Assembly (NCBI RefSeq): GCF_044324875.1
Contig: NZ_CP172185.1
Length of the DNA stretch: 64,000 nt
Direction: 5' to 3' (one strand)
From: Escherichia coli
GTDB taxonomy: Bacteria; Pseudomonadota; Gammaproteobacteria; Enterobacterales; Enterobacteriaceae
Shown here piece by piece: positions 33,043-33,567 of this stretch. A program made the position numbers and the translations under genes. Each line of letters starts with the position of its first letter. The first letter of the stretch is position 1. Under the pieces are notes generated by a model that saw only the letters and a list, made by a program, of their open reading frames with translations, made no database searches and was not told the origin of the DNA.

Positions 33043-33132
33043 TTACTTCAGGTATTTCAGAACAGCATCAAGCAGTTGCAGTGCTGCAACAATGAGTTTG
33101 AGGATAAGAATGGCGATATCCACCAGGCTCAT
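33043..33132 (-). CDS. tisB: SOS-induced type I toxin TisB (29 aa)
   Basis: Minus-strand reading gives MSLVDIAILILKLIVAALQLLDAVLKYLK; too short for the ORF track. Confidence 0.88.
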   Translation of the reverse strand: MSLVDIAILILKLIVAALQLLDAVLKYLK

Positions 33133-33366
33133 ACGCGTCTCCTGTGGTTCAGGAGCACTGCCAGCTGACGTACCTTTCCGCTGCCTGTTGCCAGCTGTTG
33201 TGCACGCGGTATCTCAAGGAGAAACGTTGTGCTCGTTGACATAACACAGTGTGCTCACGCGGGGTTAAGGCGCTGACGGCACCACCCGTTTCAGCCAGGA
33301 CTTAGTGCGCCGGGTAACGATGCGGCCCCCGCATAACACATTGCGTACAGTGATATTATAGAAGTT

Positions 33367-33386
33367 TACTGTATAAATAAACAGTA
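33367..33386. promoter_or_regulatory. LexA (SOS) box
   Basis: TACTGTATAAATAAACAGTA matches the CTGT-N8-ACAG consensus; lies between divergent tisAB and istR. Confidence 0.75.
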
Positions 33387-33427
33387 ATGTTTGGACAAAA
33401 CGCAAACTGTGATCGATACTCAACTAT

Positions 33428-33567
33428 GCACTAATTACGTCAAAATTCGTGCCGAAATTGCGCGTTCTGCGCGGAACACGTATACTTTCTGTGTTGACAT
33501 AATACAGTGTGCTTTGCGGTTACCAGCCGCGGGCGGCTGACGAAACCTCGCTCCGGCGGGGTTTTTT
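33428..33567 (+). ncRNA. istR: IstR small RNA (IstR-2 about 140 nt; IstR-1 about 75 nt from about 33493), antitoxin to tisB
   Basis: Strong terminator CTCCGGCGGGGTTTTTT at 33550..33567; TATACT -10 at 33481; GTTGACATAATACAGTGTGCT is near-complementary to the tisAB leader at 33233..33255. Ends approximate. Confidence 0.6.

Follow-up and report, generated by a model that had tools for sequence, protein, structure and literature searches.

The chromosomal tisB/istR-1 type I toxin-antitoxin locus in the emrD-ivbL spacer of an Escherichia coli genome

Among chromosomal type I toxin-antitoxin systems the tisB/istR-1 pair is the best characterised, and it serves as a model for both ribosome standby and SOS-dependent persister formation. 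The primary (+1) tisB mRNA cannot be translated, its RBS being buried in structure, while removal of the first 41 nt yields the +42 mRNA, which carries a 5′ stem-loop (+42 to +69) and a single-stranded standby site (+85 to +111) (PMC6690012). The standby site allows S1-dependent loading of the 30S subunit about 100 nt upstream of the RBS; the small RNA IstR-1 pairs with this single-stranded segment, prevents standby and directs cleavage by RNase III, which gives an inert +106 mRNA (PMC6690012). tisA, which precedes tisB, is described as an upstream ORF, and the promoter hexamers, the RBS AGGAGA and the standby site are conserved at >94-99% across an E. coli survey (PMC11264685).

We analysed a 64-kb stretch of E. 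coli DNA (the window), and conclude that the region between emrD and ivbL almost certainly represents the chromosomal tisB/istR-1 type I toxin-antitoxin system of E. coli, intact at its ancestral site. For all the tisB/istR sequence elements, both identity and integrity are established in the window. The initial annotation had placed TisB and IstR in the emrD-ivbL spacer, as the two flanking genes confirm, but the transcription unit exceeds the limits of 33043-33567 that it had given, because the 3′ terminator hairpin of tisAB is located at 32996-33023. The features of the locus and its flanks are as follows.

31579-32769, minus strand: emrD, flanking gene
32996-33023, minus strand: 3′ hairpin of tisAB with 12-nt perfect arms and a 4-nt loop (inverted repeat, 100% complementary)
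33043-33132, minus strand: tisB CDS, 29 aa plus stop (30 codons), ATG...TAA (ORF listing, translation, family models)
33129-33242, minus strand: tisA ORF of 37 codons in the tisAB leader, its stop overlapping the tisB start (ATGA)
33138-33143, minus strand: tisB Shine-Dalgarno AGGAGA (read from the sequence; identical to K-12)
33235-33255, minus strand: IstR-1 target in the tisAB leader (direct repeat; identical to K-12)
33280-33307, minus strand: predicted 5′ stem-loop region (+42 to +69) of the tisB mRNA in its processed, translatable form (estimated transcription start and PMC6690012)
33355-33360, minus strand: tisAB promoter -10, TATAAT (read from the sequence; identical to K-12)
33367-33386, between the divergent promoters: LexA box TACTGTATAAATAAACAGTA, identical to K-12
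33392-33420, plus strand: istR-2 promoter, -35 TGGACA, 17-nt spacer, -10 GATACT (promoter scan)
33428-33567, plus strand: IstR-2, the 140-nt long form, SOS-induced by analogy with K-12 (K-12 annotation b4616 via alignment)
33481-33486, plus strand: istR-1 -10, TATACT (read from the sequence)
33495-33567, plus strand: IstR-1 antitoxin, 73 nt by the RefSeq annotation of K-12 (transferred by alignment)
33543-33567, plus strand: IstR intrinsic terminator with a 10-bp G+C-rich stem, 4-nt loop and U6 (terminator scan, fold, Rfam structure line)
33697-33795, plus strand: ivbL, flanking gene

ORFs were listed down to 20 aa and the region 32990-33600 was read directly. The minus-strand ORF of 30 codons, identified as tisB by the initial annotation, translates as MSLVDIAILILKLIVAALQLLDAVLKYLK (33043-33132) and passes the cut-offs of three curated family models: Pfam PF13939 TisB_toxin (37.6 bits, cut-off 25) and, over residues 1-29 of 29, the NCBIfam equivalogs NF011340 (69.9 bits, cut-off 53) and TIGR04459 (61.5 bits, cut-off 38). 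RefSeq annotates tisB at exactly this ORF, as WP_000060506.1, in several complete E. coli genomes that carry 100%-identical copies of the region. The hydrophobic 29-aa peptide has its frame, start, stop and Shine-Dalgarno sequence intact, with AGGAGA 5 nt upstream of the start. Its only difference from K-12 TisB is N2S (position 33128); sequence divergence has left the tisB frame undisturbed. According to a published survey of over 2,000 E. coli genomes, Ser2 is the TisB consensus (85%) and TisB-N2S is toxic upon arabinose induction, exceeding the K-12 peptide at low induction (PMC11264685).

The protein encoded by tisA is identical to that of K-12, the single substitution (33234) being synonymous, and it has no Pfam or NCBIfam family match. 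From the position of the -10 element, the tisAB transcription start would lie near 33348, 7 nt downstream and to within about ±2 nt. With this start and the same tolerance, +42 would correspond to 33307, +106 to 33243 and the tisB AUG to +217, and the published standby site (+85 to +111) would map to 33264-33238 on the minus strand. Downstream, the hairpin at 32996-33023, the putative tisAB terminator, follows just after the tisB stop and is itself followed by TTTCATATTT on the minus strand. The tisB RBS of MG1655 is listed as AGGAGA, and the istR-2 hexamers as TGGACA and GATACT, in Table 1 of PMC11264685, which also gives TATAAT for the tisAB -10 and TATACT for that of istR-1; all of these promoter hexamers are found in the window.

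The toxin and small RNA genes are divergent, with a LexA box in their shared promoter region. This box, reported as canonical in the initial annotation, differs from the ideal LexA palindrome at 2 positions and lies between the tisAB -10 (33355-33360, minus strand) and the istR-2 -35 (33392-33397, plus strand). With up to 3 mismatches allowed the 20-mer is unique in the 64-kb window, and no match arose in 100 dinucleotide-preserving shuffles. Its core, CTGT-N8-ACAG, is likewise unique in the window, yet occurs at least once in 42 of 100 shuffles. A lone core match is thus not unusual by chance, and the significance rests on the full 20-mer.

The plus-strand region with a strong terminator, earlier attributed to IstR, ends in a hairpin and T-run at 33543-33567 and is matched by Rfam istR (RF01400) over the full model (33438-33567, plus strand; positions 1-130 of 130; 147.5 bits, gathering cut-off 45, E = 4.9e-32), one of only four gathering-level Rfam matches in the 64-kb window. 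Folding of IstR-1 gives an unpaired 5′ tail (nt 1-10 in both the MFE and centroid structures) and two hairpins, stem-loop 1 and the terminator stem-loop, as in K-12 (-31.2 kcal/mol, z = -2.9). IstR-1 was reportedly 75 nt long in its original description; such an RNA would presumably begin at 33493, the first base of the 21-mer discussed below. The initial annotation treated the locus as a whole as SOS-controlled. By analogy with the literature this should hold for the tisAB mRNA and for IstR-2, which is made only during the SOS response and has no repressing effect on tisB, but not for IstR-1, an antitoxin with a promoter of its own that is not LexA-dependent (PMC11264685). That the istR-2 promoter abuts the LexA box is consistent with SOS-only expression of IstR-2.

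The locus was then compared with that of K-12 MG1655, for which RefSeq annotates tisB (b4618) and IstR-1 (73 nt) and IstR-2 (140 nt) (b4616), with ivbL, ysdE and emrD as flanking genes. The alignment is collinear, with about 11 substitutions and about 98% identity overall. The flanking genes emrD, ysdE and ivbL, the divergent layout and the LexA box are all shared, as are the IstR-1 and IstR-2 boundaries and the IstR fold. No difference is seen in the tisAB leader, standby site and -10: the stretch 33235-33388 is free of substitutions, and spans the IstR-1 target, the standby site, the 5′ stem-loop region (33280-33307), the tisAB -10 and the LexA box. The differences lie around this core. The synonymous change in tisA (33234) is 1 nt outside the pairing region; 33389 is between the LexA box and the istR-2 -35; 33435 is in the IstR-2-specific part; and 33490 is between the istR-1 -10 and the IstR-1 start. 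At the tisAB 3′ end, 33010 falls in the loop of the terminator hairpin and 32995 just outside that hairpin; three further changes are 3′ of the IstR end. Finally, 33531 and 33536 are A-to-G changes in IstR stem-loop 1, converting U-A into U.G pairs; they are one-sided and structure-preserving, and the fold is unaltered (-31.2 kcal/mol in the window vs. -32.5 in K-12). All of the differences are within published natural variation (PMC11264685).

The 100%-identical copies noted above came from a megablast search of 32990-33600 against 5,426 complete E. coli genomes. This haplotype is in the minority, with only 307 of the 4,358 matching genomes having at least 99% identity. It brings together the more toxic N2S, the two U.G weakenings of stem-loop 1 and the changes at 33389 and 33490. 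It is improbable, in our estimation, that the balance of toxin and antitoxin is tuned otherwise in this haplotype than in K-12. If it were, the stability or level of IstR-1 could change, and hence the SOS threshold at which persisters form.

A 1.8-kb query spanning the flanks as well matched 5,420 of the 5,426 genomes, but only 4,348 with at least 80% coverage. The tisB-istR module is absent from about 20% of complete E. coli genomes (approximately 1,070 of 5,426), which are of the CFT073 type. These retain emrD, ysdE and ivbL, while the segment corresponding to about 32929-33570 of the window, which holds a REP-like element, tisAB and istR, is replaced by about 150 nt of unrelated sequence. 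In the CFT073 counterpart (L004) the replacement occupies 529 to about 690 and has sharp borders, after the ysdE terminator hairpin and just past the IstR 3′ end. This filler has no Rfam match, and the only ORFs entirely within the spacer are unsupported and no longer than 44 aa. The extent of module absence agrees with the published survey, in which 15% of genomes had no match and 3% an interrupted one (PMC11264685). Given the cross-genus synteny described below, absence is most simply explained as secondary loss.

Insertions were also observed at the edges of the locus. In TUM14771-type strains (L003, 1381-2062), an IS200C with annotated tnpA is found at 33571|33572, 4 nt downstream of IstR; IstR and its terminator are intact, and the locus is parted from the ivbL promoter region. 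The REP-like sequence of the window is at 32937-32976, with an Rfam naRNA4 match of 20.4 bits, below gathering. In strains of the 19-7 type (L005) a different, G+C-rich palindromic element of about 140 nt replaces 32937-32976. Since different elements occupy this spot downstream of tisAB, it appears to be a hotspot for small repeats.

The dispensability of the locus, which about 20% of complete E. coli genomes lack and a few percent carry in interrupted form (PMC11264685), and the approximately 11 positions at which the haplotype departs from K-12 could be taken to mean that the window strain retains only a decayed or silenced remnant, recognisable but with a nonfunctional toxin or regulation. 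We consider this very unlikely. The locus has an intact ORF, Shine-Dalgarno sequence, LexA box and leader target, as well as intact -10 elements and terminators (two of each), and its regulatory core (33235-33388) does not differ from that of K-12. Moreover, N2S is the majority variant (85%) and experimentally at least as toxic (PMC11264685), and the IstR substitutions keep the structure.

The initial annotation had noted near-complementarity between 33233-33255 and 33493-33515. The complementarity is real and both ranges contain it, but they are 2 nt out of register: the repeat finder gave a 21-nt direct repeat at 33235-33255 and 33493-33513, the latter in the IstR-1 5′ region, with 20 of the 21 positions identical on the plus strand. 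Transcription of the two copies runs from opposite strands, which makes the RNAs complementary, and the lone difference (C33245 vs. T33503) results in a G.U pair. No further match to the 21-mer, with up to 3 substitutions and on both strands, is found in the window. The target lies 92-112 nt upstream of the tisB Shine-Dalgarno sequence, at the distance of about 100 nt known for the standby site. On the estimated transcription start, it (33255-33235) would span +94 to +114, coinciding with the standby site and including the +106 cleavage position. That the published numbering and the window sequence agree in this way supports the mapping.

There is practically no likelihood that the 21-nt repeat is a mere relic of a local duplication of the tisAB leader, having no present antisense role. 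The short additional repeats near the 21-mer (D3 and D5) and the predicted full-length IstR-1/leader duplex of -73.5 kcal/mol might suggest such an origin. However, the similarity past the 21-mer is not significant by local alignment, since 97 of 1000 shuffles equal the score of the downstream flank and 783 of 1000 that of the upstream flank, and shuffled IstR-1 already reaches -72 kcal/mol in duplex energy. In addition, the 21-mer is retained in both copies over three genera while the flanks have diverged, and direct pairing at the target has been shown by published data on competition and cleavage (PMC6690012). We had also considered homology of istR and the tisAB leader past the 21-mer, which would point to an origin by duplication; this was rejected, as the flank similarity is not significant and the duplex energy is within reach of the shuffled controls.

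At the default cut-off of 60 aa, the ORF list omits tisB and instead shows two plus-strand ORFs, 32920-33168 (82 aa) and 32993-33244 (83 aa), the longest in the region, which the initial annotation had called spurious. The view that these two are the real genes and that the 29-codon minus-strand ORF arose by chance has a negligible probability and is effectively refuted: they have no Pfam or NCBIfam family match above noise (best E-values 0.031 and 0.048; 11-12 bits vs. cut-offs of about 700), are unannotated in K-12 and in the window-identical RefSeq genomes, and lie antisense to the TisB peptide, which exceeds the cut-offs of three curated models and is 86-100% conserved between genera. As an annotation check, the region illustrates that a 29-codon toxin gene and a small RNA missed by ORF-length filters are recoverable from raw sequence.

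The regulation and physiological effect that we infer for the window strain come from experiments in K-12 on identical or near-identical sequence, and SOS induction, processing and toxicity would all carry over by analogy. LexA bound at 33367-33386 would repress both the minus-strand tisAB and the plus-strand istR-2 promoters. Upon DNA damage, LexA would be removed and the tisAB mRNA made. A 30S subunit loaded through protein S1 would then slide to the tisB start codon. IstR-1, expressed from its own promoter, would pair by its unstructured 5′ tail with 33235-33255 and so block standby loading, and the pairing would trigger RNase III cleavage to an inert mRNA. When the tisAB mRNA exceeds IstR-1, TisB, as a 29-aa hydrophobic peptide, would enter the inner membrane and collapse the proton motive force and ATP levels, leading to a drug-tolerant dormant state.

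Other features of the window were also recorded. ysdE, 24 aa in RefSeq, maps to 32845-32919 on the plus strand. Its annotated first codon, ATG in K-12 and CFT073, reads ATA in the window, where an in-frame TTG precedes it by 3 nt at 32842 (TTG ATA AAT...); the start codon may thus be lost or shifted to TTG in the window. In strain A10, which is 100% identical, the protein accession given by RefSeq is unchanged. Weak Rfam matches to GcvB, RsmY, P6, STnc310 and naRNA4 were rejected, all being far below gathering and accounted for by terminator hairpins or REP-like sequence. Among these, the sub-threshold P6 and STnc310 matches fall on the ivbL attenuator/terminator hairpin CCCCGCCGGCGCAAACCGGGCGGGGTTTTTCG (33810-33878, minus strand; 33825-33855, plus strand), and are terminator look-alikes and not separate RNAs. 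The 64-kb window has no tRNA genes. The gathering-level Rfam matches other than istR are listed below, and the set is consistent with E. coli chromosome near dnaA, ibpA and ilvB.

511-591, minus strand: AsdA, antisense RNA of the dnaA mRNA
6068-6110, minus strand: ES036/CssrF sRNA
18690-18762, plus strand: ROSE_2 RNA thermometer

The locus is a textbook system that is already known, with tisB annotated by RefSeq in identical genomes, and its variant features (N2S, presence/absence and interruption by IS elements) have likewise been published. One more E. coli genome with an intact tisB/istR-1 adds no new biology. Its wider relationships were examined by running a degenerate pattern, derived from invariant Rfam positions, on species-representative genomes; this pattern fixed 9 of the 21 positions of the 21-mer on the IstR side and none on the leader copy. 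Eight loci were retrieved, from several Citrobacter, Salmonella enterica subsp. arizonae and diarizonae, and one E. coli. Where enough upstream sequence was present, the Citrobacter and Salmonella loci share an opposite-strand TisB ORF that is 86-100% identical, a CTGT-N8-ACAG at the same offset, and a leader 21-mer with 0-1 mismatch to the IstR tail. Every retrieved locus neighbours emrD and/or ivbL, and the position between emrD and ivbL-ilvBN seen in the window is found likewise in Citrobacter and Salmonella. These shared elements and neighbours indicate that the module is ancestral at this site in the Escherichia-Citrobacter-Salmonella group.

The loci of these genera also differ from that of E. 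coli. The central bases of the LexA box vary, e.g. CTGTATGGATGAACAG. Most Citrobacter and Salmonella loci have a C in the IstR tail where E. coli has a T, which makes the 21-bp duplex perfect as opposed to the one G.U of E. coli, while two Citrobacter loci and S. arizonae each have one mismatch at another position of the 21-mer. The duplex contains an A.C mismatch in one Citrobacter lineage. Among the 8 loci the 21-mer hardly varies, and no two-sided compensatory change was found in it. Since, in addition, the pattern itself fixed some of these positions, the comparison is to be read as evidence of conservation and not of covariation.

Among the other E. coli type I systems of this kind, shoB/ohsC, zor/orz and dinQ/agrB resemble tisB/istR-1 in combining a small hydrophobic toxin and a long structured 5′ UTR with a divergent, trans-acting small RNA that has about 20 nt of complementarity, and dinQ is likewise LexA-controlled (see also PMC11264685). 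They belong, however, to different peptide and RNA families and are found at different loci. At the locus described here these three systems are unmatched, and the models for TisB and istR alone give hits.
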